Origin: Rhizophagus irregularis
Lineage: Eukaryota
Length of the DNA stretch: 64,000 nt
Direction: 5' to 3'
Assembly: GCF_026210795.1 (NCBI RefSeq)
Contig: NC_089431.1
Coordinates: forward strand, 1,798,001-1,862,000
Below, in pieces: positions 10,201-54,203 of the stretch (position 1 is its first letter; each line of letters opens with the position of its first letter). Under the pieces are notes generated by a model. It was not told where the DNA came from, ran no database searches, and worked only from the letters and a program-made list of their open reading frames with translations. Both the position numbers and the translations under genes were made by a program.

Positions 10201-11478
10201 AGAGATCTATAGTTTTACCTTTTTCAATATTTATAATTCCATTTTCATAGCATAAATCCAAACTATATTGCACATTATTATTTTTATTGTCCACAGCTTT
10301 TTGATTCCAATAAAGAGCTTTAGCTTCATTCTTTTCAATACCAATTCCATTTTTATAACACAAACATAAACTATACTGAGCATTATTATTTCCATTTTCT
10401 GCTGCTTTTTGATACCAATAAAAGGCTTTTTCAAAATCTTTTTCAATACCAATTCCATTTTCATAAAATAAACCTAAATTGTATTGTGCATCATTATTTC
10501 CATTTTCTACTGCTATTTGATACCAATAAAAAGCTTTAATTTCATCCTTTTCAATACCAACGCCATTTTCATAGCATAAACCTAAATTATATTGTGCATC
10601 ATCATTTCCATTTTTTGCAGCTTTTCGATACCAATGAAAAGCTTTAGCTTCATTTTTTTCAATACCAATTTCATTCTCATAGCATTGACCTAAATTATAT
10701 TGTGCATCGTTATTTCTATTTTTTGCAGCTTTTCGATACCAGTGAAAAGCTTTATATTTGTTCATATCAATACCGATTCCATTTTCATAACATACGCCTA
10801 AATTATATTGTGCATTTTCATTTCCATTTTCTGCTGCTTTTTCATACCAATAAAAAGCATTTCTTAAGTCTTTTTCATTTTTATAACATAAACTTAAACT
10901 ATATTGAGCATTATTATTTCCATTTTCAGCTGCTTTTTGATACCAATAAAAAGCTTTAATTTTATCCTTTTCAATACTAATTCCATTTTCATAGAATAAA
11001 CCTAAATTATATTGTGCATTATTATTACCGTTTTCTGCTGCTTTCTGATACCGAGAAAAAGCTTTATTTTCATTTCTTTCAATACCAATGCCATTTTCAT
11101 AGCATAAACCTAAATTATATTGTGCATCATTATTTCCATTTTCTGCAGCTCTTTCGTACAAATAAAAAGCTTTAACTACGTCTATTTCAATACCAATTCC
11201 ATACTCATAACATAAACCTAAATTATATTGTGCATCATTATTTCCATTTTCTACTGCTTTTTGATACCAATAAAAAGCTTTAGCTTCATCTTTTTCAATA
11301 CCAATTCCATTCTCGTAGCATTGACCTAAATTATACTGTGCATTATTATTCCCATTTTTTGCTGCTTTTTGGTACCATTTAATGGATAATTTAGACTGAA
11401 ATGTTTTAATCATTTCTAATATAAAAGAAATAAATCTGCTAAGAAAAATTTTTTACAGAAGAACTAGTTACTTCGCAA

Positions 11479-18736: not shown

Positions 18737-20349
18737 AATTCTTACATCTAAGATAATTCAGGATATGTGCGAATAAGTTACAAATCAAAAATTTTGAAAG
18801 ATTGGGAAGGTTTATTTGTTGAAAAAAAAACAAAAATAAAAAGACTTTTGTGGAGATATATCGATTTTATATTTATATTTTATCGGCGGGAAGCAAATTT
18901 TGAAATGAAATTTGGCCCATCAAAAACATTAGTCGGTGAAAAAGTTTAATATATATAGCCAATATAGGACAATGCATTGCTTGAAGAAGCTTGATATGCT
19001 TGATGAAAGTAAAAAGAGAAGAAAAGAAATTTGTAAAATTAAGTAACCAAAAATGTCAAATCTAAGTGGTTATAAAAAAAGAATTATAAATAGTACTTTT
19101 ATTTCTAACTTAGACAACGCACGATAAAAGCCTTAATTCGCCAATAAAATTACATTCCGTAATCACGTGATAAATCTTTTTTATAAACTTTTTTATTGGA
19201 ATTTTTGGAATTTGACTAAACTTAATATTCCTAAACTAATTAACTACTTGGTGATTTTGCGCTTTACTATTTGCTTGCACACTTCTCTAATTTTTCATTA
19301 ATGGAATCTTTATATATATCGGTAACGAAATATTTGGAGACAATCAACTGAAAGTTCACGATAGTCTTCCAATATGTTTGATAATAAATTTTAATGTTGT
19401 TATTATAACTACTATATTTATTACGTTATTACATTATTTCCATATTGCATTGCAGTCTCCCATGTTCTACATCTTAATCTTATCTTTTCCTTTCCACTTA
19501 GTCTCGTATGACTCGTGTATAACCACATCTTGATAAAATTCATCAATATTCATATTTTCCTCAACTGGAATTCCTTCCCAACCAAAAACTGATTTGGAAT
19601 GATATTCCACATAAACTGTTTTGCTGCAAATGCGAGGACGATTATTTCTTTAAAAAAAAAAAAGCTTTAACGGCGACTAAATAATGATTTAAAATGAATA
19701 ATAATAATTTAAATTCTAAATACACAAACCTTTTTAAAACAGATAAATTGGACTGATCTAGTAATTTTACCATCTAAACTAACTATGATAAATCCTTTTG
19801 CTGCTTTGTTGGGCTTCGACCGGGAGAATAATTTCCTCTCTTACTTGCAACGACAAAAAGAAGAATTTATATAGATGATAAGAGATTAATAGAGCTTTTC
19901 ACCGAATTTATGACCTATGGATAATATAGGATACCCGTTTGAAAATTTTGAGATCCGGATATCCTATTAAATATAATAATTCTAGGAGGATATACGATTA
20001 TTTGTGCGACAGCGACGTTAAATTAAATAAAGGTGATTTAAATAATTTTTATCTTTTTTCATACTTTGTTTAATTTCAAGAGTTAAAAATGAATTTATAA
20101 CGTGAACGTGAAAAATTATGAATCCTTACAATAATCATGTAAAGATGGGTTGGATATATTTATATGCCCTATGAAAAAAGCCTGTGTGATTTTTGTTGAA
20201 AAAACATCCAATTAAATTCACTATGATTTCTGTATATTTGACCATACAATAATTGTGCTAAAAATTGCAATAAATCACACAATAGTTGTATGGCAATCAT
20301 ACAATAATCATCCAATTTATGACCTGATTTTATATAATTATTGTCTAAT

Positions 20350-20560
20350 TTTTGAGCCAAATTTTGGGCCGAATTTTAGGAATTATTCTGGGCCGAATTT
20401 AGAAATTATTGTGAGCCGAATTTTAGGAATTATTAGGAATTATTATGGCCGAATTTAGGAATTATTGTGGGCCGAATTATTAAGAATTATTATGGCAAAT
20501 TTAGGAATTATTGTAAGCCGAATTTAGGAATTATTGTGGGCCGAATTTTAGGAATTATGA
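20350..20560. repeat. Left subterminal tandem array (GCCGAATTT(T)AGGAATTATT, ~20-bp unit, ~9 copies)
   Basis: Read directly from the sequence. Confidence 0.85.
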
Positions 20561-21912
20561 TTACAGTAAGTTAAAATTTGGTCAGTAACGATTAACGACA
20601 AGCAAATTTATAAAGTGAAATTATGGATTTTTATTAATTTAATATACAAAATAAAACACTATATTTGATATGAATTATAAATGTAGAAAACTATAAAAAA
20701 ATATAAATATATATATATAATAATTCATAAATAATATACTATCGCTGTATTAGATATAAACTATAAATTAAAACTATAAATGTATAAAGAAAATAAAATC
20801 AAATATTAAAGAAAGTAAAGTAAATTATTGGTATAAGTAAATTATTAATATTAAAAATAAAAAAGTATGAAGTTAGTAAAGAAAGCAAAATTAGAATTAG
20901 TAAGTAGTATGGAAAGTAAATTGTTAGCATTTGTTAGCGTTAGTAATAATAAAAAAAAGAAAGTAAAATAAATTATTGTAAGTAAATTATTAATATTAAA
21001 AATAAAAAAGTATGAAGTTAATAAAGAAAGCAAATTAGTAAGTAGTATGGAAAGTAATTGTTAGCGTTTGTTAGCGTTAGTAATAATAAAAAAAAGTATA
21101 AAGTTAGTGAAAAAAGCAAGTTAGTAATTGAAATGTAAAAAAGTTAGAAAATAAATAAAAGGATAAAAAAATAAATTTTCTTACCGAAAAGAAAGTTTGA
21201 AGAAAAAAAGTTTGAAGAAAAGAAAGTTTGAAGAAAAGAAAGTTTGAAGAAAAAAAGTTTGAAGAAAAAAAAGGTTAAAAAAAATAAACAAATATTTTCT
21301 GCGTAGTGAAAAAAGTAAGTTAGTAATGTAAAAAAGTTAAAAAATAAATTCTGCGTAGTGAAAAAAGTAAGTTAGTAATGTAAAAAAGTTAAAAAATAAA
21401 TAAACGAAAAGAAAAGTTTGAAGAAAAAAGAAAAAAAGTTTGAAGAAATAAAAAAATAAACAAATATTTTCTGCGTTATATTTATTATTTATTTTGATGA
21501 TCAGATCACGTGGTATAATATAATTTAATTTTAATTGGACGATCAGATCACGTGTATTATATACATAATTTTAATTGGACAATTTCTTTTATTTTCCAAA
21601 CTAACCGGATAAGTAGTGACACAAAATTTTAACTAACGAAAAATGAACTTTTAAACTTTAATTTTGTATTAGTTACAAAATTTCATTACAAAAGCAATAC
21701 GACAACACAAAAATTTACTTTATTTAAAATATATATGCATATTATGTATGTTATCTCTAATTTATGAAATAAAATAAAATATTAGTATTTGTAACTAATT
21801 AATTTCAAATTAAATAACTTACTTTATTATTTTCGTTATAATCTAAAATAAAAATAAAAATTAATTGATTATTATAAAAAATTTTTTGTAATATAAAATG
21901 AAAAAATAAATA

Positions 21913-23062
21913 TTAATTATTACCTTTTCGCGGTTGATTGGAAATCCGCCCAGATTTTTTTCTTTCATTTTTTTTCTTCCCGCTCTTTTCGCTGGCATTT
22001 GTATTGCCAACGTCTGTACTATTATCATTTTTTTTTTTTTCCGCTCTTTCCGCTGACATTTGTATTGGTATTGTCAACGTCTGTATTATTATCATTTTTT
22101 TTCTTTCTGCTCTTTCCGCTGACATTTGTATTGGTATCGTCAACGTCTGTATTATTATCGTTATTATCAGACTTCAAGAAAAGTTTAAAAGAGATATAAC
22201 TGAAGTTAAAAATATGTTTTTAACAAAATGCTTATACTATATATATTATACCTTATCTGATAAATCATCTGCAGTTCCACTACTACTAATGACCACTTTG
22301 TTTTTAATTTTATCTCTAGTGATCACCGATTTATTCTTTTTTAAAATAACTTCCGTTTCCTTCTTCTTTAGTTTTTTTTGGTGGGCACCTTTTATAAAAT
22401 TCAAAAATTAATACGTATTTATTTTTATAAATAAATATAATTCAAAAGATGAAATTATTATTTACGTTTATTGTTCATCGAGCGGCGAAATAATTCTTTG
22501 ATAGCCCAATCTCCTGTTGTTTTGGGAAAATGACTATTATTCCCTTTGAACTGAAAAAAAAATTTTGTTAAATGTATTATAAATGTATTGATTTAAAGTA
22601 TGATTAATTTACAATATACTTACCTTCTCGATAATTTTTAATATTGCTCTCCTCTCCTGCTTTTCCCAGGACGTTTCAACATCGATATACGCTTCAATTA
22701 GGTCACGTATACTTGACTAGTAAAATATATAAAAGTTAAATCCTAAAATGATAATACATGAATTATATCAACAATTACATATTTATATATTACAAACTTT
22801 GTAACCATTAAATTCCTCATTAGTCAGGTTTAAAATTTTTGCAATATTAATGTAAGCACCGGTTGGTTTGGAAATTGATACAGTTTCATCCACCACTTTT
22901 TCTAGAATTCTCTATATTTATAATTAAAACTTAATGTTAAAAAGAGATCAAACTGCAATATAAATGCTAAAATTAACTTACATTTTGTTGAACAGGAAGA
23001 TCTGACGATTTTTTTGATTGATTAAGAACGGTTATTTTATTTAATTTTTTGTTAGTAGCCAT
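21913..23062 (-). CDS. Transposon passenger gene A: uncharacterised helical domain + Lys/Asp/Asn-rich repetitive tail (apparent +1 frameshift in the poly-T at 22028-22040)
   Basis: In-phase GT-AG exons 23062-22982, 22911-22798, 22716-22624, 22550-22466, 22388-22252, 22171-~21923 give MATNKK...SIRDLIEAYIDVETSWEKQERRAILKIIEKFKGNNSHFPKTTGDWAIKELFRRSMNNKRAHQKK...; 3' end uncertain. Confidence 0.7.
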
Positions 23063-23544
23063 AACAAAAAAATCCAAATGTAATGAAGAGAAATTCAGAT
23101 AGAACGAAGAAAACGAAGAAAAAAAGAATGAATTAAATTTCTCTGAATTTATATTAACTTGACGAGGTTTTTTTTTTAAAAAAAAAGGTAGAAACATTAG
23201 CGATTTTTCCTAAAAAGGAAAGATAAACGAATAATTTTTTTTTTAAAAAAAAAGGCAGAAACATCATCGACATTTCTTAAAAAAGAAAAATACAACAATC
23301 AAATTTTTTTTCTAAAAAAAATTGATAGCGATATTGTGTACAAAAAAGGAATATAAAAGGGTTTTTATAACATCTATTTTTAGCTATTTCAACAGTTACG
23401 GTAGAGTTTTTTAAATAAAGAATAATAAAATGAATAAACGATACAAATTATTATAACAAATTATTATAATCGTGCGTGACTTAATAAAAATATGAAGATT
23501 TCACACTAGATTTAGTATTAATATTTTTTGGGAAGTTGTTTCCT

Positions 23545-23576
<32 letters not shown>

Positions 23577-23897
23577 GTAGAAACATTATCGATTTTCTTA
23601 AGATTTTTTAAAAAAAATTGACAATATTTGACAGCAATATTGTATACAAAAAAGGAATACAAAAGTGACAATATTTGACAGTAATATTGTATACAAAAAA
23701 AAAATACAAAAAGGGGTTTTTCATCATAAGACTTCAACCGAAGACCAAAGTTTCTTAAAGCGATCTTTTTTTTTTTAAAAAAAAAGAACAATCTTTTTTT
23801 TAAAAAATGACAGCATTCGAAGTACAAAAAAGGAATACAAAGGAGGTTTTCATATCTATTTTAAAATTACACAGCCATTTTATCATAAGATTTTAAC

Positions 23898-24099
23898 CCC
23901 TATAAAAAATTTTTATCCGAATTTTTCCATTATTTCTCCGTGTCTTTCATGTCTTCCGTAAAAATTCCGTGAAAATGATACATTCACGGATATCGAGATG
24001 AAAATTTCCATGATTTAAAGCTATTATTAATTCTATTAAAATGATACATTCATAAAAAAAAACATGGAAAGATAAAATACGGATCATATTTTTACAGGA
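23898..24099 (-). mobile_element. Diverged family-A-related MITE nested inside the large CACTA element
   Basis: CCCTATAAAAAATTTTTATCCG...CATTCACGGA...TTTTTACAGG resembles the reverse complement of family A. Confidence 0.65.
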
Positions 24100-24672
24100 A
24101 TGTAATACTTATTTAAAATAATAGTTATTTAATTTGATGAATAATTGTTGACGTAAAAATATATTTTTTTTGACGACAAAAAAATAGTAATAGTATTACT
24201 GTAGATTAAGTGTTAGATCCTCGAACGAGGATAATTTTTTTTAAGATGATTAATCCGTCATTAATCGCAACGAAATAAATGGGTGTGTAATACTGGTGTA
24301 AAGATGTATGTAAAGAGATATGTATAATGCTTTTTTTTAAAAAAAAAAATAGGCAGAAACATTATCAATTGTTCTTAAAAAAAAAAATCTTTTTTTTTAA
24401 TACAATATTCGAAGTACAAAAAAGGAATACAAAAGGAGTTTTCATCTATTTTTAAATTACACAGCCATCTTAAAACGACAGGAATATTTGTGTACAAATT
24501 ATTCCGAATAAAGATAAATCAAAATTTTTTAGCTTATAAAATCTGAAACATAAATTTTATGCAGTGTGAAAAAAAAAAAGTATTTTAGTTTTTAATTTTT
24601 ATAAATCTTGTATAGTGTAAAAAAAAAGTGTTTATTTTTTATAAATTGTGAAAAAAAAGTATTGGAAAAAAA

Positions 24673-27600
24673 ATGTCGAATAATAAAGTATTATGTATAT
24701 GTTCCAAATGTAAAAAAAAAGGATCAGATAATATTGGTAAATATGTGCATCCTACTACCAAATGGAGACATATTAAAAATGCAAAAAAGAATTATAATTT
24801 TAGCGACAACGATGATGATAGCGACGACGACGATAGCGATAATGATGATAATAATAATAATAATAACGATCATGAGGACGATAATAACGATAACGATAAT
24901 GATGATAATAATAATGACCACGACAAAGACCACGATGACGATAACGATCACGATGACGACCACGATAATGATGGCGATAATGATGATAATAATAACGACT
25001 ACGACGATAATAATCATGATGATAATGATGTAGAATATAAACAGTAAGTATTAAGGAGAATATTTCTGTTATTCGTTAACTAATAATGATTATTAAATGT
25101 TTTATATTATATTTTAATTGTAATGATGATAGGAGGAATGAATTTGATAATAGATCTTCAAGATCTCCTACTCCCGTTCTCATGGTAATTGATGATGATT
25201 GCTATGATGACAATCAAGAACACCATGACAATCGTGACAATTCTGATGAAAAAACAGAATCATCCACTGCAACTGAATCTGAATCTTATGAAAGTTTATA
25301 TGATTCTTTTGATGATAATAATACGTTTGAAGTATTACAAAAAGGACTATATAGTAGCGATAATGAATCATCTGATGACGGTATTAATTTAACAGAAGGT
25401 AATATACGCAATATTTATTTATTTATTTAAAATTATTTATTATTAATGCAAATACATATTATTTGTAGGGTCTAATATTGTAGGGTCTAATATTAATAGT
25501 ATTAATGATGAAGTTGCTAGAGGTTTACGTCTTCTTGAAGTAAAAACTCGACGAAATATTACTGATGCAGCCTTTAAAGAAATTGTTACTGCAGCTAGTG
25601 GTAATTTTACAAGTCAATATACACTAATAAAAACACTTAAAAATATAGTTCCTATTAAACCAATTTGGGTTGATATGTGCATAAATTCATGCTGCGCTTT
25701 TACTGGTAATTTGGAAACATTAAATAAATGTACCTATTGTAAAGCTGAACGTTATCAAGAAGGAGGACGACCAAGAGCACAAGTAGCATATTTTTCAATT
25801 CAGAATCGATTTAAAATTCAATATCAAGATCCAACACGCGCAAAACAATTACGTTATCGTTCTGAATATATTACCAGAGAAGATAATGGTGCTATTGGCG
25901 ATGTATTTGACGGCTCACAATATAAATATCTATCCCAAGAGGGATATTTTCAAGACGATCGTGATATTGCACTTTTAGGTTCTGTTGACGGTTATCAACT
26001 ATTCAAACAAAAATGTGATGATTGTTGGATAGTTTTATTTATTAATGCTAATTTGCCACCCCATCAACGTGTAAAAAAAGAAAATTTACTTATTACTTCA
26101 ATCATCCCGGGTCCTAAAGCTCCAAAAAATTTTAATTCTTTTATGAAACCAATAGTTGAAGAATTATGCTTATTAAATGGTAATTTTAATTACATACATT
26201 ATGATAAAACTTAATGATAAAAAAAAAATATATTAAAAATAATTGTAAATTTGTAAATTTGTAGATGGTGTTGAATGCTATGATGGTGCTACGAATGAGA
26301 ATTTCCTCTTAAAAGTTACGGTACTTTCCTGGTCTGGAGATACTCCCGGATTGTCAAAACTTGCTTGCTTAACTGGACATAATTCATACATGGCATGTCG
26401 TTACTGTGATCTTCGTGGGATATATAATAATCATGTATATTATCCTACAACACCACCACCATCAATTGAAACATATAAAACTTATAATCCATCAGATTTA
26501 CCAAAAAGAACTCATAGAGATTATATGATAAGAATTGAACAAATAACGACAATACCGCCATCAAGAACACGCGATACATTAATTTCTGATTTAGGTAAAT
26601 AATAAATCTATTGCAACATAATTTTTTTTACTATAAAATTAATAATTATTATTTTGAAATAGGTGTTACAGGACGTAGTGTTTTATTAGAAATAGAAACA
26701 ACTCGATTTCCTACATGTTTTCCAATAGATATTATGCATTTGTTTTATGAAAACATCGCATTATATATGTTAAAACATTGGATGGGTTGTTTTTTTAAAG
26801 ATTCTATTCTTAATGATCAGCCATATGTAATTAACAACAAACAATGGACTGAGATTGGGATTGAAATGGAAACCGTAAGAAAATCCATTCCAACTGATTT
26901 TGGTCGACCACCACGAAATATCTTACATCACCATAATGGTTACAAAGCAGAGGAGTGGGCTTCATGGATAACCTTATATTCTTTACCTTTATTAAAAGAT
27001 CGTTTGCCGGCAAATTATCTTAAAGGTTGGTCCTTTTTTGTTAAAGCTGTTCAGCTTTGTCAAAAACGAGTATTATCTTTACATGATCAAGAAGAAATAA
27101 GGAAATTATTATTGCTATTTTATCAACATTATGAACGGTATATATATTACAACATTTATTTTATTTATTGAATTATTGTTCTTTTATTAAAATAATATTA
27201 TTTTTAGTTATTATTATCAGTTTTTGGCTGCCCGACTAAGTGTAATGAAAGTATGCTTTCATTATATTTTACATGTTGCTGATAGTATTCAGGATACTGG
27301 ACCATGTTGGTCAACATGGCAGTTTCCTATGGAACGTACTTGTGGAATGTTACAACCGCTAGCAAAATCACGCCTCCATCCATATAAAAATCTAACAAAC
27401 AATGTATATTTGTTAGAATTATTTAATAATTTGTGTTATTTTAGAAAATTTTATGACCAGATCTTTCCTCCTATATCTGATAAAAAATATAAAGAGCACT
27501 TGGTTTATACAAATGAGAATTATGAAGAAGAATTTCAATGGCCTTCTAAACCATATACTCTTACATTCCAAGAAGTTAAAAAAATAAAAGATCATTTATG

Positions 27601-28203
27601 TGTAATAGATGATCGTGCATCAGAAATGCGATTAAATGTATGTATTATTTTATTTTATGTTATTTTATTTTCAATTTTAAAATTAAATATTGACTAATAT
27701 TTACATTTTTTACATTTTTTAGGATTTTGAAACCAACGGAACAAAATTTGGTCGTTTAATAACTTCCGATGGTCGAGTAATTGGGTCAGAATGGATACGT
27801 AGAAATAAAGACTGGGCACGAATTAATTACACTGTTTTGGTTAGTATTTAATGCAATATAATCATTTATTAATTTTGTAAGTTTTATTTAATAATTTTCA
27901 TTTTAGACCCGTTTAGAAATTGACAAATGGGCTCACTTACCAAGTGCAATCCCAGAATTCGTAACTAAATCATTTTACGCCCAGGTTAATTATTATTTTT
28001 TATACGGGTATATGGATCAGAAAATAATGCTAGCGAACGTAACATGGACAAATGAAGTTAATGAAGATTCATTAGGTACAACTTCCTTTGTAGGTGATGG
28101 TTCTACACAATTTATTGATGTTACTGCAATCAATAGATGTGTAGGTTTTATGAAATTGGGACGTAAAACATATATTATTGATAAGGAATGTATGGAAGAA
28201 TAG
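24673..28203 (+). CDS. CACTA/EnSpm (Tnp2/Transposase_21-like) DDE transposase, 8 exons, 998 aa, apparently intact
   Basis: Exons 24673-25043, 25133-25398, 25469-26179, 26265-26594, 26663-27137, 27208-27637, 27723-27839, 27907-28203 sum to 2997 nt with no internal stop. Motifs DMCINSC, DVFDG, SVDGYQ, IIPGPKAP, SGDTPG, DIMH, YKAEEW, H..LH, GP....WQFPMER. Confidence 0.92.
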
Positions 28204-28794
28204 AAATAAACAATTTAATTAAAAATTGTCAAATAATCTGAAATTGTATTACGCGCGATGTGTATGTCGGATTTCTTAAATAAAACTTTCTTAAATAAAA
28301 CTGTAGGGAAAATTCTTATTAGTTCTTTTTGTATTGTAAATTTTATAACGCCCTATATTATACGTAATTTCAATCTAATAAAATTAGAAATAAACGTCTG
28401 CCTTACTTGCCGTTAAAATCTGAATAAGTATTTGCAATAGTTCTCAAATAAGTATAGAATTCTTTACCGATATCTGGACTAATAACAGACGTATTTATTA
28501 TAACAGACTGCATAGACGACGTATTGTAATGTATTATAATAACGTTTATAAATAAAATTGTTTATAGTTAAATATAACAATTAGGCAGGCATTCATTTGG
28601 CCAATTTAGCCTTTATAATAAAAATCGCGTTAATATTATAGCAATGATAATAATATAAAAATTTTTTTTATTAAAATGAATAATATTAATTAATTAATTA
28701 TTAAAACGTTAATATATACTAAGAAATAAGCAATAATTATAATAATATGAAATTAATTAATTAACATCAAGCCTCGCAATTTAATTAACATTAA

Positions 28795-29625
28795 TTAATC
28801 ATCGTCGATTTCCCAAATTGCGAGGCTTGCGAGGCTTGATTGAGAACCTCCTTCTTCTTCCTCAAATATTTGAACCACTTCCTGTTCCTGATCCTGCTGC
28901 TGCTGTTGCTGTTGCCTTTGTTGATCCTGCTGTTGCTGTTGCTGTTGCCTTTGTAATTTTTGATCCTGATCCTCCTGATTCTGATCTTGATCCTGCTGCT
29001 GTTGTTGTTGGCTAAGTAATTTTTTTTGATCCTGATCTTGATCCTGATTCTGATCCCGATCCCGATCCCGATACTGCCGATTCTGATCCCGCTGCTGTTG
29101 CTGTTGTTGTGTTTGTGACCGTTGCCGTTGCAATTGTGTTTGTGACCGTTGGAATTGCAATCCTAAAAATATTATTTAGAATTTAATATTATTTAGAATT
29201 TAAAAAAGAAATTAAAACACTTTACAAGATGATTCAAAAGTTAATACTTGGTTTTTTCCAAAACTTATTTCTGAATTCTAAATAATATCTTTCCCCGTTT
29301 CTTATTATTTTTCCCCTCGGATCCTTAATAATAGATAATTCCATACTCTAAAGATTATAAATTAGTAAATTAGCCTACATTTGAAGAGATAATGACAATA
29401 TTGTATAATATTATATTGAATATTTACCCGGCAATCCTTTACAATACCATGGAATTTTTCGCTCGCTTGACGTCCAGTATAAACTGTTTTGAATCTTTGG
29501 TTGATTTTTCCAGCGGTTGAGATCCACCAAGCTCGCTTGCAATTACCACCGCCAAGCGAGTGGTAATGTGCATTACCTTCTTTCCTTTCATCGATGAGCA
29601 TTCTTACTTCGTCGTCGGTCCACAT
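28795..29625 (-). CDS. Transposon passenger gene B: Myb/SANT (trihelix-like) DNA-binding domain + Gln/Asp-rich tail, ~221 aa
   Basis: WTDDEVRMLI...WW..TAGKIN.....TGRQ..EKF motif; exons 29625-29428, 29347-29248, 29162-28795 in phase (666 nt). Confidence 0.75.
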
Positions 29626-29897
29626 AATGTTAATTGAAATTGAAATATTTTTTTTTTTTTGAAGAAAAAAAAATTTTGAATTAATTTTTTTTAAAAAAAA
29701 AATGTAAAATGGAAACGAATGAATTTGATTTAATTTTTTTTTTCATAAATTAAATAATACTTACGTTTTAATGATGTAATAAATATCAATAAATTAAAAA
29801 AAGTCTAATAAATAATATTACTTATTAATGATGTAATGAATTACTACGCTGATTGATCAAATTGAATTACTTATGTTTATGTGTAATTCTGCAATTT

Positions 29898-30016
29898 TAC
29901 CCGCGACTCACCCGTGACTCACCCGCAATAATATAATACTTATAATATACTGAACACCGCGACTCACCCGCGACTCACCCGCGACTCACCCGTGACTCAC
30001 CCCGTGACTCACTCGC
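29898..30016. repeat. GC-rich 11-bp repeats (ACTCACCCG(C/T)G) between divergent passenger genes B and C
   Basis: About 8 copies in two clusters in otherwise very AT-rich DNA. Confidence 0.8.
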
Positions 30017-30831
30017 AACATTACTAAACACTTTATAACCATCTCTCTATAAAAAAAATTACACAAATTTGAACCTTTTTATCAATTGAAAAAAAGAATT
30101 TAATCACTTATTACTTTATCAACAGCGGCCTCAATTTCGAATGGTATGTGATTACAAAATGATGATCTAATACTCAACAGCGGCCGCCTCAATTCAAATA
30201 TATTCGAATGGTATGTGATAACAAAATGATGAATTTACCTTAAGTGCTCGCTAGACATTTCAATGATTTTGGTTTAGTTTTTAACAAAATGTAATACTTC
30301 ATAACTAAATGTACAAGCATTTGACCTGACCACTGGTCTACCATTATTTTTTTGCGTCATTGATTTTTTAAATGCGCCATTTATTATTTTTGCGCTACTA
30401 TTTATTTCACAATTGGATTTCTTATATGACCGATATGCAAAATTGCATGTGATATTTTAATAAACGTTTTGCACTATATGTGTATTCTGCAGTTAGCCCA
30501 TTATTTTATTTATATGGTTAAATTTATAATACTAGATTATCAATTATTACGCCAAAATTCTAAAAAATACTATGTACGTATATATATATAATGGAATATT
30601 CCTTAATTTAGAAATTTACCATGATTTTAAAATTTTTTCCGTACAAAAAAAATTTTTTTCCATGATTTTTTACTAAAAAAAAAATTCCCCTAATTCCATG
30701 ATTTTTAATTTTTTTTTACCTCCTTAAAAAAAAAAATAAAATAAAATAAAATGGATTTTATTTCAAGTCTCTCACCTTTCTCGCGTCTCTCACCTTCTTC
30801 GTATCTCTCACCTCGCTTCTAATTCTAAAAA

Positions 30832-30846
30832 ATGAATACCAATAAT

Positions 30847-30919
<73 letters not shown>

Positions 30920-31806
30920 TTCTATTTGCTCATCAAACAACAATGCAGGAGTTTAAAGAAGGAACTAACTCTATTCATAAAACGACGCTTAACGCGCTTA
31001 TTAATAACTTGCAGTAAGTAAAATAATTAATAAAAGAAATAAATAAAGTAAAAAAATAGATAAATAAATAAATAAATAAAAGAAAAATCTTTAATTATAA
31101 TCTTATAATCTTAAAATACATTTTTTGTTTTTTTGACGACTTGTAATAAACAGACCACCAGTATTTGGAAGTGGGAGAACTTCTACGTTTAGTTCGTTCG
31201 GAGTACCTTCGTTTGGAGCACCCTCGTTCGGAGTGCCTTCGTTTGGAGCACCCTCGTTCGGAGTACCTTCGCCTTCGTTTGGAGCACCCTCGTTCGGAGT
31301 ACCCTCGTTCGGAGTACCTTCGTTCGGAGTATCCTCGTTCGGAATTGGTAATAAAATTAATAAAATTTTTTTTTATATATATATATATTTAACTTTAAAA
31401 CAACTTCTATTATATTATTATAGCTGCGGCAAGAGCAGCAACAATAGCAGCAACGACCACAGCAGCAACAACAACACCAACACCAACCGCACCAACAACA
31501 ACAAGTGCACTAATACTAGCTGCACCAACACTACCAACCACATCAACAACCACATCAACAACCGCATCAACAACCGCATCAACAACACCACCAATACCAA
31601 CCGCATTAACAACTACATCAACAACCGCATTAACAACCGCATCAACAACCGCATCAACAACACCACCAATACCAACCGCATTAACAACTACTGCTGCATC
31701 AACCGCAACAACAGCAGCTATTGCAACAACAACAATAGCAGCAGCAACAACAACAACATATCACCAGTCATCAATTCCATCATACTGGCCTTTACAGCAG
31801 CAGCAG

Positions 31807-31853
<47 letters not shown>

Positions 31854-31857
31854 GCGG

Positions 31858-31919
<62 letters not shown>

Positions 31920-32247
31920 GCAGCAGCAACGGCAACGGCAGCAGCAACGGCCAACGGCAGCAGCAACGCCAGCAGCGTATGCAGCGCCGACAGCGCGAAT
32001 GTTTTGAATCAACGGGTAATAAAATTTATTAATTTAATGTAAAAGTAAATTTTATAAATTATTTAATAATAAAATTTTTAAATTAATAAAAATAGGAGCT
32101 GTTTGCTATTATTGTAATGATAATCATTACATCTTCGCTTGTACTCAAATACCGAAAGAGTACAAAGGCCGTTGCGTTAATTGCTGGGCGGACGATCATA
32201 TGGTTATGAGTTGTAATAATGTTAAAATAAGAGAGCCTTGGCTCTAA
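30832..32247 (+). CDS. Transposon passenger gene C: poly-Asn, 11 FG (8 PSFG) repeats, Thr/Ala-rich linker, polyQ, two CCHC zinc knuckles (~372 aa if the single extra C at ~31951 is removed)
   Basis: Exons 30832-31013, 31154-31347, 31424-32015, 32096-32247; last exon reads GAVCYYCNDNHYIFAC...CVNCWADDHMVMSC...EPWL*. Confidence 0.72.
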
Positions 32248-32339
32248 ATTTTTTAATTTTTTAACTTTTTTCTAATCTTTTTAATTTTTTAAGTTAGATT
32301 AAAAATTATTTTCTGAATCATGTTATGTTCTCGAACATT

Positions 32340-32560
32340 TTTCCGATTGGGGTCGGATAATAAAAGATTAATTAAAATATTCGATTGGGGTCGAATATTT
32401 TTCTTTTTCCGATTGGGGTCGGATATTAATCTTTTAAAAAATGTTCGATTACTATTTTTTTTTGTCCGATCGATTGGGGTCGAATTAATTTTTGATTACT
32501 ATTTTTTTTTGTCCGAGTCGGATTAATTTTTTTAAAAAACGTTCGATTGGGGTCGAACCA
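32340..32560. repeat. Dispersed (T/C)CGATTGGGGTCG repeats (~5-7 copies) downstream of gene C
   Basis: Read directly from the sequence. Confidence 0.75.
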
Positions 32561-34472
32561 ATATAATAAAAAAAAATTTTTTTATAAAATTATATATTTA
32601 TTTTCATATATATTATTTTTAATATTTTTTATTTATTTTTAATATTTTTTATTTATTAATATTATTAATTCGCAATTCGTAAAAAAAGTAAACATGAAAA
32701 AATTTACATTACATTTATATAATGATCGGTAGGAATAGTAGTGATAATAAAATGCGTTAATATTCGTTAATACCAATAATTAAATGCGTTAATACTAAGA
32801 ATCTCTAATCGTTTTAGATCTAAACATGAATAACGACGATACTTGATGTAAAACTTGTTTCTATTAGTTAGTAAATAGTATGTACATGAGAGGTAACAGC
32901 AATCCGAAAGGCGCGTTACTTTATAAACTGGTAAACTTTATAGAATAAAATAACAGCTAAAGGAAACGAAAATAATGAGATATTACTAAGGTATACAAGG
33001 TATAGGTATCATGTATCATTCAGCGATATTAAAACAGCACCAAGTTATGTATGATAAGTTTATACGAAGTTTATATCAACGACGAAGTTTAATTTTCTAG
33101 ATCTTTTATTAAAAATTGGAATAATAATGAATTTCTAAGTATTTTTCTATTTATTATTTTATTTAAGAATTTTTTTTATAATAAAACTTGCTTAGTAATA
33201 CAGTATATAATAAAATCAATAAAATCAATAAAATAAGTTTCATATTGCATAAAAAATTTTTTTATTTAATTAAATTTTTTTATTTAATTAATTATATTAA
33301 TACAGTATATTTATTATAAAAGATTATTAAGGAAAGGTAAAAAAATTAAGTAAATTTAGAATGTGACGAAGGTGGATAAGGAAATAACGCGAGCGTGATG
33401 GTAGTTGCAGATGGTATGTGTATATGGTGGCGGCGGCGGTTATTGTGGTGGAGGAGGAAGTAATTGTAGTAAAGGAAGTGATCGAAAAAGTAATTATAGA
33501 GACGGAAAAGGTGATCGTGATGAAGCGATTATTGTGATGTTTGCAGATATTTTCGGTTTTACTATAATATAAAAACTTGATACACGATTATAATATGGTT
33601 GAATTACGGTTAAATGGGTTAAATGATATTAAATGTATATTATAGAAACGCGGTTCTGTTATAATAAAATAACTTGATCGCTAATATTATTATAAATTAT
33701 AAGTTAATTTAAAATAAATACATTGTAGGTAAACAGTCATATATATTACTTTTTAAATACATTCACAATTCACAATTAAAGTAAAATGATCTCCCATCGT
33801 ACAATTGTAACGATTGTACTAAAATAAACGTATATTTCGTATATTTTCAAATATTGTACAATAATCGCACAATTTTTATATCCTAAACTTTTATTGCACA
33901 AAAGTTGAACGTTTTCTGTATACTTAATTTAAGTTTATTTTCAATTGTACAAAGATCGCACATTTTCAATACACTATAAAATCGACATGGCCATTTTTAT
34001 CCAAAAAACTGCAATAATTGTATGATTTCCGCACGGACTTGAACAAATATTGCACAAAAATTGGATGATCTTTTTTCATAGGGATGTGATATACGTGTAT
34101 TATTGGATGTAATATTTAAGACACAAGTTGAATCTGTTCAGATTTTAAAGCCAGTTTCGAATATTTTTTAATTAACATATAATAAATATTAAGGTTTACG
34201 ATTTTTGATCAATGATCCTATTCAAAATGACTTTTTTAATACCTTTTGAGTAGCGTCTCCAATATGTAGATATGGCATGATACTGATTTAATAGCTAAAG
34301 TTAACTCTCTCATCTCAAAATCTGGTGTAATAAAGTGGCATGTGATACCAAGAAATCCTAGCTTATTGCAAGAAGTCCAAAGGTCGCAGGTTGGTGAAAC
34401 TGAATTTGAATTTTCATGGATATATTGCTTTCAAAGTTTCATTTAATGCATTAATAAAACGATGGAGGAGAT

Positions 34473-37647: not shown

Positions 37648-38395
37648 CGATTTTGAGACAAATCGCCAATTAATGGATTATTATTTTTTTCAAGTACCAT
37701 TTTTTTAATCAAACAGGGCAGTGACATATATTAGTTTCATGGGCTCCACCCCAGGTAAGATCTTTTTTAACCAATAATATTCAATTATACATATAATACT
37801 AATTTTATCCAAGAAAAATGTTTAATTTGTGTCACGTAAGATTTTGCCTCTAAAACATTAGCTAATACAGTATACCTAAAATCTATTAATTTTTTTCATA
37901 TATTGTATTATATTTTGCTTGCTGGCGAAAACAAAAAATTTTTTTGTAAGATAAATCAGTAAACATCCGAATGATGGGTGTAACATAAATGTAACCACAA
38001 TTATCTTGTATGACAAAATACTTACAATAAACATGCCTTTACTCTTCGATAATAGTATTGTATTGTCATTAAACTCTTTTTTAATGTTTTATTGTTTCTA
38101 TTTATTTTCATATGCAACTCTCATTCAATTTCACCCAAATAAAGTTTAATGTAGGCGTAATTTGTGACGATTAGCCGCGACATATCATTGTTGTACGCAG
38201 TGACTGTTTATTACATGTGCATACGTACATGTCCATTATGCGCAGCTTCAAACTGAAAATCGATACCTTTATTGAGTGATCACATGGTTACATGGGGGTA
38301 AGTGCTCATTTTCATATATAAGGGTATATGAAAAAAAATAATATTAATTTTACTTTTTTACGAGAATTGTTATATTTACTTTTTTAATATTAACA

Positions 38396-40576
38396 ATGTC
38401 GCAAATTCGTAAAGATAATACAGCTTGTTTACCACGTTTAAAACGTGAAATAGTTGAATTATATAATGAACCACTCAAAGGAATCAAAGTGAAGTTACAC
38501 GAAAATGATATAACTTCAATGTGTTTAATATTAACTCTCCATCAAGGACCATATAAAAACTTAAGGTTACATTATAATGTTAAGATACCACAGGGTTATC
38601 CTCAAATAGCACCTATTGTTACAATACAAACACCAGTAAGACATCCTAATGTTTTCGGAACGTTTATTTGTGCTGATATATTACAAGCTCACCATCATCG
38701 TAGTTCTGATTATTATAATGGTGGATATACTCCTGGTTATTTACTTAAATATATTTTTTTACAAATATTAAGCTTCTTTTCTGATAATAATGTTGAACAG
38801 GAGTTTGGTTTTGTAGAACAAATTAATTCCGATCACGAAGATTTTAGGACAACTTCTGAAAAAGTTGTAAAAAAATTTGAATGTAAAATATGTGGTTATA
38901 ATGATTTGAAAGCTTCTAAACCTTTAATGCCAATCCTTACTGATAAGGAATTACAAAAAGAGATGAAAGAGATGGATTCCGGTTGTTCCAGTATATTATC
39001 TAGCGTAAAGGTAAACCCAAAAAATATTACCGTGAAAGATTCTTCATACGTTTCAACAACTACGGTAAATGATTTAGATGATGATGCTTGGTTACATATT
39101 ATAGAATTTTTACCGGATCGTGATATTGTGGTCTTGTCGAATGTTTATGCACGTATTCGTACTCTTGTTCAATTCTATAATATATTAACTCGACGACAAT
39201 TAGTTTGTTTTTTTCTAAGAAAAACTTTTAGAGAATGCGTTCTTGGAGTTGGAGTAAATGCTATTGGACGAATTGATAAAAGAAAAATTACTATAAGTGA
39301 ATTTGATCTCTTCTCATATGAAGCATTTAAAGATCATGGTTTACGAGAAGGAATTTGGGGTGGCAATTTCACGAATTTTCTTCCTCTAGTGTTAAATAAA
39401 ACCCATTTCAATCGTGCTTTACCTATAATAAAATCTTCCTTAATGGCATTACGTGGAGAAATTGGAAAACCATGGAATTCTTCAGCAATTCTAAAAACAA
39501 TTCCTAGTCTTATGAATACAACTGTGGTCGCCCTAATGAAAGCTTGTGATGAAAGTGGCCAGCCTTCAAGATCAAAAGTTTTAAAAGCTTCTGAGAAAGC
39601 ATTACAAGGATATTGTCTTTTGTTGCATCTATTATTAAAGTTATCAAAACAATTTCCTGAAATTATTACCGAAGCTGAAAATAAAGTTAAAGCATTTAAT
39701 CGAGATAGAAGAAATCGTCAGAAATCTTCGACACCTGATTTAGGAGAATTCATGATTTATTTTTTTTTAGCAAAAAATGTTTCCTGGTCTGAATTCGTTC
39801 CTTGTTTCTTGAAAGAATTATTATCACGTAACGTAGTTTGGTATTTATGTAAAGTTCCTGGATTAGCATTTCTTGAACCAGAAGATTATGTTTCTAAATA
39901 TAGAGTGGAAGAAACTTTTACTCAAAGTGGAACTTCATTACGACTGGTTATGTTTCAAATTGCATTCATGAATATGGTTAAAGGAAAAGAAGATGATATG
40001 GATAGAAGATATGGATACCCTTCAAACGAAATGAGTAATTCTCTTCTTTCTCTTATCAAGGAAATTTATGCGGCAAAAACCTGGAATGTTTTTTTTAAAG
40101 TGATTGGTTTTCCATTACCAGAAAAAAATTGGGAATCAGAAATTTGTGACATGCTAACAAACGCAGTGAGAGATAGTGAAGCAAGTAAATATCACCAAAA
40201 CCCTTATACAAATAATGAATTATTTTATCTAAGGAGAACAAATGAAGCGAATATTCCTACTCCTAATAGTTGGTTAAATGATGAAAATAATAAAGTCTCT
40301 GAAATAGAGAAATATGGAGTCGTGAAATTTTTGACTTTTCAACCAGGTGAAAGAAATATAAGGGAGAATGAAAATAAAAGACATTCCTTTTCTTTTACAT
40401 CCAGAGGGAATGATAATAATAATAATAATAATAACATTAATATTATTAATGATAATTATGGGATTGGCGGGATTGGTGGACGTGGTGGGCGTGGTGGAGG
40501 GCGTGGTGGTCGTGGTCGTGGTCGTGGTTGGCGTGGACGTGGTGGCAATGTAAATATGAACCAAAGACATACGTAA
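38396..40576 (+). CDS. Ubiquitin-conjugating (UBC/E2) domain protein with central F-box-like motif and C-terminal RGG box, 726 aa
   Basis: RLKREI...GPY....YP..AP.V...T...HPNVFGTFICADIL (HPN + Cys); LDDDAWLHIIEFLPDRD; GGRGGRGGGRGGRGRGRG tail. Confidence 0.85.
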   Translation: MSQIRKDNTACLPRLKREIVELYNEPLKGIKVKLHENDITSMCLILTLHQGPYKNLRLHYNVKIPQGYPQIAPIVTIQTPVRHPNVFGTFICADILQAHHHRSSDYYNGGYTPGYLLKYIFLQILSFFSDNNVEQEFGFVEQINSDHEDFRTTSEKVVKKFECKICGYNDLKASKPLMPILTDKELQKEMKEMDSGCSSILSSVKVNPKNITVKDSSYVSTTTVNDLDDDAWLHIIEFLPDRDIVVLSNVYARIRTLVQFYNILTRRQLVCFFLRKTFRECVLGVGVNAIGRIDKRKITISEFDLFSYEAFKDHGLREGIWGGNFTNFLPLVLNKTHFNRALPIIKSSLMALRGEIGKPWNSSAILKTIPSLMNTTVVALMKACDESGQPSRSKVLKASEKALQGYCLLLHLLLKLSKQFPEIITEAENKVKAFNRDRRNRQKSSTPDLGEFMIYFFLAKNVSWSEFVPCFLKELLSRNVVWYLCKVPGLAFLEPEDYVSKYRVEETFTQSGTSLRLVMFQIAFMNMVKGKEDDMDRRYGYPSNEMSNSLLSLIKEIYAAKTWNVFFKVIGFPLPEKNWESEICDMLTNAVRDSEASKYHQNPYTNNELFYLRRTNEANIPTPNSWLNDENNKVSEIEKYGVVKFLTFQPGERNIRENENKRHSFSFTSRGNDNNNNNNNINIINDNYGIGGIGGRGGRGGGRGGRGRGRGWRGRGGNVNMNQRHT

Positions 40577-43575: not shown

Positions 43576-44920
43576 AACAAGTGGGAAAAAATGGTGAGGG
43601 TAAAAAAGAGGAAAAATCGCAACAATAATGCCAGTTACTTACATAGGACAAGCTTTAAGAAGCGAGATCAGAAGTGACCATCATTGCAGGTGAGTAGGTT
43701 TGGATGTTGAGACGAAGGTTACCTAGTCTCCGTTATTCCGTAGTTGCGATAAAGTGGTCATGAGCATAATGGTGGTCGAGGTATACCACTTTGGTCACTA
43801 CCGTATGTATGGTCACTACAAGTATACCATACAATCACCATCTGTATGGTCACCTCATAGAAACTATATGGTGCTGCAGAGTCACTTACCCACTTTAGCT
43901 TCGCCAAACGCTTGCTTAGGCTGGTCCCAACATTCACATTGTATATTTGTAGACGTATCCATTGTTTTCATATTGAACAAGTGGAAAAAAATGGTGAAGA
44001 TAAAAAAAAAGAGGAAAAATCGCAACAATAATGCCAATTACTTACGTAGACAAGCTTTAAGAAGCGAGATCAGAATTTACCATCATCGCAGGTGAGTAGG
44101 TTTGGATGTTGAGACGAAGGTTACCTAGTCTCCGTTATTCCGTAGTTGCGATAAGGTGGTCGTGAGCATAAGGGTAGCCGAGGTATACCACTTTGGTCAC
44201 TACCGTATGTATGGTCACTACAAGTATACCATACAACCACCATCTGTATGGTCAATTCATAGAAACTATACGGTTCTGCAGAGTCACTTACCCACTTTAG
44301 CTTCGCCAAACGCTTACTTAGGCTGGTCCTAACACTCACATTGTATATTTGTAGACATATCCATTGTTTTCATATTGAACAAGTGGAAAAAAATGGTGAA
44401 GATAAAAAAAGAGGAAAAATCGCCAATTACTTACGTAGACAAGCTTTAAGAACTATGGTTCTGGCGTTTTCTTTTAACTTTTTTTACATAAAAAACACTG
44501 AAACTATGGTTCTGGCATTTTTTTTTAATTTTTTTTTACATAAAAATGCCGGAACTATGGGTTTTGGCATTTTCTTTTATTTTTTTTTACATAAAAACGC
44601 CAGTACTATGGTCCCGGCGTTTTAGTAGGTTTGGATGTTGAGACGAAGGTTACCTAGTCTCCGTTATTCCGTAGTTGCGATAAGGTGGTCATGAGCATAA
44701 GGGTGGCCGAGGTATGGTATACCACTTTGGTCACTACCGTATGTATGGTCACTACAAGTATACCATACAACCACCATCTGTATGGTCACTTCATAGAAAA
44801 CTATATGGTGCTGCAGAGTCAACTTACCCACTTTAGCTTCGCCAAACGCTTACTTAGGCTGGTCCTAACACCACATTGTATATTTGTAGACGTATGATTT
44901 ATGCCCATTGTTTTCATATA
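43576..44920. repeat. Tandem array of three ~400-bp relatively GC-rich units; the third carries four ~50-bp hairpin-type repeats (44451-44622)
   Basis: Units start at 43576, 43976 and 44378 with near-identical sequence. Confidence 0.9.
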
Positions 44921-51996: not shown

Positions 51997-53259
51997 ATGT
52001 CATACTTTTTTCCTTTAAACGATAAAATTATTCAAAAGTCAAGTTCAAATATCTCTAATAATGATGAAATTTTCTTAAAAGAATTTTTAATAGATTTTTA
52101 TAGAAAAATTCTTTATATAAACGATTTTAATAATTTTGAAAATATTTTAATCGAACTTATAAATATTAAAAATACGAAAACTATTTTAGAATTAATGAAA
52201 AATCATAAAGAAAATGAATTTTGGTTTTCTAGTATTATTGGATTTTTTTATCAATATGGTATCGATTGCGATATTGATAAAGATATTGCATTAGAATTTT
52301 ATTTATTGGCTATTAAAAATGATGAATCTTTGGATCATAAATTTAACTTATTAGATATAAATAATGATGATAATGATGATTTTATTATGCTTCAAAATAT
52401 TAATTGTATAATTGGAAAATATTTATTATCATTATTTTATTATAAAGATATTATATTAGATATAAGAAATTTAAATGGTTTAAGTGATTTAGTTATTAAT
52501 TATTTAAAATCTGCTAGGAAAGGTGATCCAATTGATCAATATAATTTAGGAATTTGTTATCAATATGGTAGAGGTGTAACACAGGATTATAAGAAAGCAT
52601 TTGAATGGTATTTCAAATCTGCTAATAATGGTTATGCTAGAGGTCAATGTAATTTAGGTTTATGTTATTATTATGGAAGAGGTACAGTTCAAGATTATAA
52701 AAAAGCTTTTGAATGGTATTTTAAATCTGCTAATAATGGTTGTGCTAAAGGTCAAAATAATTTAGGTTATTGTTATCAATATGGTAAAGGTGTAAATTTG
52801 GATTATAAGAAAGCATTTGATTGGTATTATATATCTGCTAATAATGGTTATGCTAGAGGTCAATATAATTTAGGTTATTGTTATTATGATGGAAAAGGTA
52901 TATCTCAAAATTATGATAAAGCATTTGAATGGTATTCAAGATCTGCAAATAATGGTCATGCCATGTCAAAAAATAATTTAGGTTATTGTTATGAATATGG
53001 TGAAGGTGTTGTACAAGATTATAATAAAGCTTTTGAATGGTATTTAAAATCTGCAATTGATGGTTGTGATTTAGGTCAATATAATTTAGGTTATTGTTAT
53101 TATAATGCTATAGGAACTAGATTAAATATTGAAGAAGCTATATTTTGGTATAAAAAAGCTTTAGATAATGGAATAGAAGGTGCATATATTGAATTGAATA
53201 AAATTTTATCAAGGAATAATTTCATTTATAATAATAATAAAAATAAAGTTAATTACTAA
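51997..53259 (+). CDS. Sel1-like repeat protein (about 6 repeats) with lineage-type N-terminal region, 420 aa
   Basis: Open ORF; QYNLGxCYxYGxGVxQDYxKAFEWYxKSA repeats; WFSSIIGFFYQYGI N-terminal motif. Confidence 0.9.
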   Translation: MSYFFPLNDKIIQKSSSNISNNDEIFLKEFLIDFYRKILYINDFNNFENILIELINIKNTKTILELMKNHKENEFWFSSIIGFFYQYGIDCDIDKDIALEFYLLAIKNDESLDHKFNLLDINNDDNDDFIMLQNINCIIGKYLLSLFYYKDIILDIRNLNGLSDLVINYLKSARKGDPIDQYNLGICYQYGRGVTQDYKKAFEWYFKSANNGYARGQCNLGLCYYYGRGTVQDYKKAFEWYFKSANNGCAKGQNNLGYCYQYGKGVNLDYKKAFDWYYISANNGYARGQYNLGYCYYDGKGISQNYDKAFEWYSRSANNGHAMSKNNLGYCYEYGEGVVQDYNKAFEWYLKSAIDGCDLGQYNLGYCYYNAIGTRLNIEEAIFWYKKALDNGIEGAYIELNKILSRNNFIYNNNKNKVNY

Positions 53260-53894: not shown

Positions 53895-54203
53895 CCCTAT
53901 AAAAAAAATTCTCCTATAAATTTATTTTATTTATTTTATTTTATTTCAAGAAGAGGAGTGAACGTTATCTGTTACATTTAAAGAAGGCGCGGCCGAAGCT
54001 TTGCACAAACTAATCAGGTAAGTAGAACTACGTATCTCATTCCACACAAATGCAGAACCTCACCCTTCGAACTAAACTATGCTAGGAGTAAAACTACGCT
54101 ACTACTAAAATTGAAAAAATTCCTATAAATGATCATTTTTCTAGTTTTTGTTCCGAAAGAAACTCAGACACGTGATCATTTTTCTGAAAAATTTTTTATA
54201 GGG
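53895..54203. mobile_element. MITE family B copy (TSD ATT) containing a nested 199-bp retroposed fragment
   Basis: CCCTATAAAAA...TTTTTATAGGG with ATT flanks; insert 53922-54120 bounded by direct repeat TCCTATAAAT. Confidence 0.8.

Follow-up and report, generated by a model that had tools for sequence, protein, structure and literature searches.

The window analysed here, a stretch of 64,000 nucleotides from Rhizophagus irregularis (contig NC_089431.1, positions 1,798,001 to 1,862,000), contains a DNA transposon of 13,917 bp (20167-34083) that encloses a predicted transposase gene, a Myb/SANT-like gene and a third gene whose product carries FG repeats and tandem CCHC zinc knuckles. This third gene, referred to below as the knuckle gene (30832-32247, plus strand), has four predicted exons separated by GT-AG introns of 140, 76 and 80 nt. 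The features of the element are collected in Table 1. Arrays of repeats lie near both of its ends but differ in motif, where CACTA/EnSpm (CMC) elements have one motif common to the two ends. The region of the lysine-rich reading frame also holds a 66-bp repeat and is possibly a fourth gene of the element; the two pieces of this frame that were scanned (~21900-23000) gave no Pfam match, and Rfam gave none within 20000-34200.

Table 1. Features of the transposon and its genes, in window coordinates
Feature	Position	Strand	Remarks
Left target-site duplication ATG	20164..20166	.	identical ATG at 34084-34086
Left terminal inverted repeat CCCTATGAAAAAAG	20167..20180	+	14-bp perfect; 23/30 first bases match right end
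Left subterminal array, ~23-bp repeats, core GGGCCGAATT	20348..20581	+	4 exact copies, none elsewhere in window
Possible multi-exon lysine-rich ORF	~21900..23000	-	ORF pieces, splice-like sites; borders approximate
Transposase gene, 8 exons, 998 aa, predicted, open	24673..28203	+	Transposase_21
Myb/SANT-like gene, 3 exons, 221 aa, predicted, Q/D-rich tail	28795..29625	-	divergent from knuckle gene
Knuckle gene, exon 1	30832..31013	+	polyN, then 31-residue helix-like amphipathic segment, conserved
Knuckle gene, exon 2	31154..31347	+	15-bp minisatellite encoding 11 FG (8 PSFG)
Knuckle gene, exon 3	31424..32015	+	T/A/P-rich linker, polyQ, R/Q-rich stretch
19-nt excess (18+1, near-duplication)	31950..31968	+	shifts frame; missing from public contigs and L001
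Knuckle gene, exon 4	32096..32247	+	tandem CCHC knuckles; conserved IPxxY(K/R)G-type linker, EPW end
Five CGATTGGGGTCG repeats 3' of knuckle gene	32344..32555	+	none in window outside element
Right terminal inverted repeat	34070..34083	-	L001 matches to 34083, then different flank
Right target-site duplication ATG	34084..34086	.	pairs with left ATG

Terminal inverted repeats (TIRs) with a target-site duplication (TSD) are weak evidence by themselves in DNA this rich in A and T, where such a pair arose in 44 of 200 resamplings, and the border of the element therefore rests on the breakpoint of a second copy, L001. This copy was the sole real one among four loci found in a single metagenome scan, the others (L002-L004) being short, weak matches. 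L001 aligns to window positions 24288-34083 and passes into unrelated DNA right after the right terminal repeat, while its left end lies off the contig. With the right end fixed by L001, the left 14-mer is expected 3e-4 times in the 24.7 kb upstream, and 3e-6 times together with the ATG duplication; the reverse complement of the right end is found once in the window, at 20167. Since L001 ends at the identical base next to another flank, the knuckle gene is transposon-borne, and the inverted ends, the ATG duplication and the second insertion site all agree with the sequence-only reading, which had described it as such.

Pieces of the transposase match Transposase_21 (Pfam PF02992) at E 9e-13, above the cut-off, and 1e-5, and DUF4218 weakly. 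Its motifs are DGY386, GDTPG474, CRYC494, DIMH582, HYILH736 and WQFPMER755, with CRYC494 and HYILH736 falling between GDTPG474 and WQFPMER755. The identity of the catalytic D and E residues is taken here as an assumption. The step from Pfam family to transposon superfamily follows PMC5751038. CMC elements carry TIRs with TSDs of 2-5 bp, and most of them have 5'-CA..TG-3' termini (PMC12730594), unlike the CCC..GGG termini found here; because CCC ends are described for TRC members (PMC1636069), membership in the CACTA/EnSpm superfamily stands. The duplications described for such TRC members are of 2 bp (PMC1636069, PMC4298943), and a test of our element for a 2-bp TSD was negative, the duplication being 3 bp. 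Classified from its sequence by transposase, TIR and TSD, the element is of CACTA/EnSpm (CMC) type. R. irregularis is among the species from which CMC families have been recorded (PMC11075540), and a transposase from Glomus intraradices is listed among the TRC transposases of PMC1636069.

The Myb/SANT-like protein matches PF13837 at E 0.004, below the curated cut-off, and has an atlas score of 0.94. The pairing of a transposase with a separate Myb/SANT protein is better known from PIF/Harbinger than from CACTA-type elements. A PIF/Harbinger identity, which this protein would fit, was rejected on the transposase, which belongs to Transposase_21 and not to Plant_tran/DDE_Tnp_4; the Pfam scan gave no Harbinger family of the latter kind. 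Elsewhere in the window, two MITE-like elements (53895-54203 and 54440-54679) have CCCTATAAAAAA inverted ends and 3-bp duplications, ATT and CTA; their CCCTAT ends are related to those of the large element, of which the pair are likely non-autonomous relatives. Further single ends of the same type occur at 497, 16197, 17008, 23898 (inside the element), 34617, 42795 and 47005. The window also holds a single-exon ORF of 742 aa (38348-40576, plus strand) whose product has a ubiquitin-conjugating domain (E 3e-13), matches F-box weakly and bears an RGG-rich tail; tandem arrays of a 108-bp unit at 2701-3705, 7299-11377, 52501-53171 and 56319-58076, one of them of 38 copies, which are presumably Sel1-like repeat genes; and, at 43576-44871, a unit of 402-536 bp that is present three times, at 93-100% identity.

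Exon 2 of the knuckle gene encodes, in order, VFG, SSFG, eight PSFG and a final SSFG, that is, 11 FG within 60 residues, spaced by five residues bar one interval of 11 and one of 7, and TRF places a repeat of 15-bp period and 9.6 copies at 31194-31343. The motif order and count given by the sequence-only reading are thus confirmed by the gene model, and the T/A-rich linker, the polyQ stretch and the CX2CX3HX4C and CX2CX4HX4C knuckles are likewise as it described them. Its account of the repeat as a 15-bp unit with synonymous variation needs correction in the second part: the unit is as stated, but the spacer residue alternates between V and A and one unit has S in place of P. Among 13 repeat units the variation falls at third positions 3, 6, 12 and 15, at the spacer residue and, once, at the proline, in a set chosen with 7 of the 15 positions held fixed, which inflates the synonymous signal. 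Because these third positions are common to the sense FG and the antisense PNEG frames, the unit variation favours FG over the other sense frames only, and it is the splice sites and flanking exons that make the sense strand preferable to the antisense frame. In random stop-free 15-bp units FG turns up at a rate of about 1% and PSFG in 2-5 of 100,000 cases, so that the pore-like motif is rare by chance, though it was chosen after the fact.

Given exon 1, four stop-free acceptors lie at 31060-31200, and all of them yield the FG frame; the RSEYL frame is therefore unreachable from exon 1 through them. Splicing in that frame, the outcome that the sequence-only reading had set against its own proposal, was not seen in the gene models, the FG frame being the sole stop-free one that these acceptors can reach and being kept both in L001 and in the NCBI gene prediction P0044. 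A second NCBI prediction, P0001, splices intron 3 as modelled here, and P0044 does so for intron 1; both are annotated as Rhizophagus irregularis hypothetical proteins and match pieces of the element at 97-100%. The exon 2 repeat is present in the contigs of all four public runs in which it was sought, with 0 differing letters in the listed pieces; in exon 3 these pieces leave 31726-31953 outside their cover. When the FG exon was compared with PDB sequences, the top two of five matches (E up to 10) were Nup159 (E 3e-4) and a Nup42 peptide (E 0.21), a low-complexity likeness that includes identical 5-residue FG spacing in short runs. Read antisense (31095-31388, minus strand), the repeat gives PNEG(A/T), and a Racocetra relative, P0006, has an in-frame PNEA(H/P); the chance of this resemblance is about 1-3% per comparison, and an inverted repeat unit is conceivable.

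As assembled, the window encodes a protein of 319 aa that ends short of the knuckles, a truncation previously ascribed to one extra C at about 31951. The truncation applies to the window as assembled; base 31951 is missing, at full contig depth, in all three public runs that cover it (X8, X12 and X1, from three studies, the contigs used being genomic), and L001 likewise departs from the window here. For run X22 both the site and exon 4 lie outside its cover, and this run was not counted as an absence. Nor is the difference a single base. Window positions 31920-31949 recur at 31938-31968 with one extra base, and since the runs pass from 31901-31949 straight to 31969 and beyond, the window holds an excess of 19 nt. 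The runs are placed by 41-49 letters left of the joint, which suffices as bridging, and their loose ends match window 31901-31919 and 31909-31919; the exon 3 stretch 31726-31900 is outside the cover of every run. In the runs' reading the gene encodes 366 aa and ends in the knuckles, and in L001, an independent metagenome contig, it is open throughout, at 328 aa. The frameshift is almost certainly not general, and the comparison with public contigs and L001 at 31951 removes the truncation as a caveat; the 19-nt excess is likely an assembly artefact or, less probably, a private lesion of the window copy. Word sharing with the window was 6-11% for RNA runs; for X21-X24 it was 0-2%, which is not read as absence. 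In X8 and X12 the contigs of the element have about 4-5 times the depth of unrelated contigs, a ratio that is not a copy number.

The window and L001 are 99-100% identical in the 3' part of the element and in most of the transposase, whose 3513 aligned bases hold 27 differences, with a mosaic block at ~29000-31300 in which identity is 88-95% with many gaps. From this contrast between block and flanks it follows that a segment was swapped with a distant subfamily; the block takes in the promoter region that the two accessory genes share, together with their 5' exons, and its switch point lies in or near the FG repeat. The spacer upstream of the knuckle gene has 54 indels between the copies, and the exon lengths, 182/137, 194/119 and 573/579 (window/L001), keep phase. 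Exon 1 is in frame and about 86% identical, and its helix has a pN/pS of 0.27 over 28 codons (5 synonymous and 5 non-synonymous; Fisher p 0.033, a test resting on these 10 differences). In the Myb exon pN/pS is 0.10 over 63 codons, which indicates strong purifying selection. From their phases and pN/pS values, the two genes would seem to have been functional while they diverged within subfamilies of the element. The FG frame, whose conservation in other copies had been proposed as a check, is kept in exon 2 of L001, the diverged second copy, but the number of FG is not (5 vs 11), and the unit aligned to the window's first SSFG reads SLFT; exon 4 is identical in the two copies.

Relatives of the knuckle protein were found by an HMMER search (8 representatives) and a profile search (20 proteins), whereas a single-sequence word search with the knuckles gave no matches and the viral collection yielded nothing. 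The family comprises R. irregularis paralogues, Racocetra persica proteins and, from short ENA/JGI contigs, a lineage of 212-aa proteins; P0005, one of the 8 HMMER matches, lacks a knuckle and was dropped. In its full-length members the N-terminus is helix-like and a linker of low complexity leads to the double knuckle. Homology of the helix across the family is drawn from whole-protein alignment and one pairwise match, between L001 and P0003 (41% identity over 27 aa, pairwise E 2e-4). In the knuckle alignment the eight Cys/His positions are largely kept, the second His/Cys being lost in some members, the I-P, G and W are invariant, and the linker between the knuckles is conserved.

FG repeats are not what this family conserves. 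None of the 41 other knuckle-family proteins (44 stored proteins less the unrelated P0005 and the element's own P0001 and P0044) has FG, a count that could be too low, should an FG exon have escaped the gene models of homologues, and which, since 29 of the 41 are near-identical members of one lineage and 2 are linker-less fragments, stands for about five informative lineages. This absence, together with the counts of 11 and 5 FG and the loss of a unit in L001, leads to that conclusion. Three lineages have other period-5 repeats in the linker (SRQPP, EAHPN and TTKVA), so that this family shows a tendency to acquire 15-bp repeats there; as judged from the sequences compared, the FG repeat is the outcome in one lineage. 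A lack of FG in homologous copies, which the sequence-only reading had named as refuting its proposal, is therefore seen in the 41 relatives and is not seen in L001. The 212-aa lineage (P0004, P0016-P0043) consists of many variants that are 96-99% identical, in uninterrupted ORFs on contigs of 700-2400 bp, and may represent a multi-copy or highly expressed member. At window 32209-32248, a second locus, in contigs of up to 14 kb from runs X3, X8, X11 and X12, has in common with the gene just the final 40 nt of exon 4 and is possibly a decayed paralogue.

Structural predictions were made for the two conserved ends of the protein. The second knuckle has exactly the Gag-type spacing CX2CX4HX4C and the first has X3; Pfam zf-CCHC does not match the window protein and matches one family member at E 0.61. 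A profile of the knuckles searched against PDB sequences has a retroviral nucleocapsid as its best match (E 0.0074). Five structure models of the knuckles ranged in pLDDT from 48 to 85, the best at 84.7, and the fold matches are weak and nearly all to CCHC nucleic-acid binders: Foldseek gave Lin28, NEXT and SIV nucleocapsid at E 0.9 or worse, and VIA gave HIV-1 nucleocapsid (Z 2.3, rmsd 3.3, 39 aligned). The second atlas match of the knuckle protein, offered as a lead, is a cluster with AIR2-like_ZnK4 in 16% of its members (score 0.86); Air2 chains are absent from the 15 Foldseek rows and the single VIA row, all of them weak matches. For the N-terminal helix of L001, a four-copy model scored 0.34 against 0.02 for the best control, with contacts agreeing between runs at 95% or more and pLDDT of at least 72. 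Of 30 solved homo-pairs, 21 came up to the mark of 0.32, against 0 of 23 single chains; on eukaryotes the figures were 17 of 29 homo-pairs and 0 of 30 single chains. The helix passes this mark marginally, one run scoring 0.29; four copies were used in the helix job where the calibration used two, and amphipathic helices may pass easily. The heptad bias is modest, with 7 of 9 positions apolar or small in the best a/d register. Self-association of the N-terminal helix is accordingly a marginal prediction of the models.

On balance, we think that the knuckle protein probably serves the element as a self-associating, likely RNA-binding scaffold in which the FG repeat is an interchangeable linker minisatellite and not the functional core. 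This reading draws on the location within the element, the second insertion site, the intact frame, the selection on the helix, the conservation of the knuckles and the variability of the FG. The N-terminal helix would oligomerise and so present several knuckle pairs on flexible linkers; the knuckles would bind single-stranded nucleic acid, for which transcripts of the element itself are the likeliest candidate; and the linker, disordered and in this lineage supplied with Phe residues as stickers, might promote clustering of such RNPs, which could protect the element's RNA from small-RNA silencing or decay. The Myb/SANT protein would be the likelier binder of the terminal repeats. At transposon loci of R. 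irregularis, DNA methylation and small RNAs are reported to act (PMC8647823).

The sequence-only reading had gone further and proposed a nucleoporin mimic or adaptor. As a candidate, a lineage-specific FG-nucleoporin mimic, its linker minisatellite having converged on repeats like those of Nup159 and Nup42, would have an oligomer multiply the 5-11 PSFG for docking on Crm1/Xpo1 or Mex67, or for cohesion with FG-Nups of the cytoplasmic side; we regard it as unlikely. Several observations speak for it: the gene is in a transposon, its best PDB matches are Nup159 and the Nup42 peptide, the FG frame is retained in a copy whose exon 1 has diverged, PSFG is rare in random 15-bp units, and the 13 units change mainly at third positions of the PSFG core. 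PxFG/SxFG motifs mark cytoplasmic Nups, of which Nup159 is the main Xpo1 partner (PMC2172579), and C. elegans GLH-1 unites FG repeats with CCHC knuckles (10.1101/663641, PMC12050070). By the same analogy the knuckles might tether element RNA at the pore, as FG repeats do for GLH-1, but this too we think improbable, and there is only a small chance that such docking, at cytoplasmic pore filaments or Crm1, would give the element faster export, evasion of silencing or passage to other nuclei in the shared cytoplasm. Against the proposal stand the family, where none of the 41 other relatives has FG, and the inconstant number and the SLFT unit of L001. Moreover, the span of 60 residues with 3-residue, partly hydrophobic spacers compares poorly with the ~430-residue FG domain of Nup159, the PDB match is a low-complexity likeness, and the third-position signal is both inflated by the choice of units and shared with the antisense PNEG frame.

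Less probable again is that the gene is captured cargo, a host gene or a fragment of another element that the transposon could dispense with, its repeats being neutral products of slippage. Paralogues in R. irregularis and relatives in Racocetra and metagenomes might fit such an origin, as would the small amount of selectable divergence in exons 2-4 and the segment exchange seen in the mosaic block; yet the two copies have retained reading frame and splice phases, and within that very block pN/pS is low for helix and Myb alike. We give least weight to the idea that the knuckles are a protein- or DNA-recognition module, whether one that binds the element's repeats in the manner of TnpA or one that acts as a decoy where knuckles of Air2/ZCCHC7 type dock on complexes for RNA surveillance in the nucleus. 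Element-specific repeat arrays do flank the knuckle gene, the linker between the knuckles is conserved, the AIR2-like atlas cluster provides its lead, and Spm TnpA binds motif clusters and reverses silencing (10.64898/2026.08.24.746577), but TnpA does so with helix-turn-helix domains (10.64898/2026.08.24.746577), and the element has its Myb/SANT protein available for a DNA-binding role. The scaffold reading remains the one that we prefer.

The locus thus offers an intact, precisely bounded element of CACTA/EnSpm type in an arbuscular mycorrhizal fungus, a root symbiont. For its two accessory genes, one Myb/SANT and one of a double-knuckle family that has no Pfam model, we found no prior description; literature searches likewise returned no account of the knuckle gene or of an FG-repeat transposon protein, although Repbase or the transposon library behind PMC11075540 may hold the family. 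The element poses the puzzle of why a cut-and-paste transposon would retain a probable RNA-binding protein, and the family is a natural experiment in which functional-looking PSFG motifs can arise by slippage among exchangeable 15-bp linker repeats. Should the FG version bind transport receptors, it would be a nucleoporin mimic made by a transposon.

Among known systems, the second knuckle resembles those of retroviral nucleocapsid and Lin28 in its spacing and through weak profile and fold matches, but the first knuckle, the family-specific linker and the lack of a zf-CCHC match set the protein apart, and the element, unlike a retroviral setting, has no Gag or reverse transcriptase. With yeast Nup159 and Nup42 it shares PSFG/SSFG motifs, and its 11 (window) and 5 (L001) motifs exceed the mark of at least 4 PxFG/SxFG in a low-complexity region and lie within the range of 4-48 given for FG nucleoporins (PMC2172579). 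Unlike those two proteins, it has a short span of repeats that its family does not conserve, and it is encoded by a transposon. Searches with exon 1 and exon 4 for pore-anchoring or other nucleoporin homology outside the repeat gave none and matched unnamed fungal and metagenome proteins only; lacking this homology and conserved FG, the protein does not belong among the FG nucleoporins, though by analogy it may work partly like one. Another parallel is C. elegans GLH-1/Vasa, a protein other than a nucleoporin with FG repeats and CCHC knuckles, in which the FG repeats tether RNP granules to pores (10.1101/663641, PMC12050070); GLH-1 is, however, a host DEAD-box helicase with glycine-rich FGG repeats, whereas the knuckle protein has no helicase, and the analogy is functional only.

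As a transposon, the element resembles CACTA/EnSpm (CMC/CMCT) members in its Transposase_21, CxxC and HxxxH motifs, short TIRs, short TSD and subterminal arrays, the last differing in motif between its two ends (PMC1636069, PMC12730594). It differs from most CMCT elements, with their CA..TG ends (PMC12730594), in ending in CCC, and from the animal TRCs, which combine CCC with 2 bp (PMC1636069), in its 3-bp TSD. It also differs from the CACTA/EnSpm elements known in the literature searched in combining a length of 13.9 kb with separate Myb/SANT and double-knuckle genes. Unlike plant Spm TnpA, which has tandem HTH domains and binds DNA motifs (10.64898/2026.08.24.746577), the element gave no TnpA-type match in the Pfam scan. 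Nevertheless, like TnpA and the VANC protein of VANDAL elements, the knuckle protein is a non-transposase protein encoded by a DNA transposon, and these two provide the precedent for accessory anti-silencing proteins (10.64898/2026.08.24.746577).
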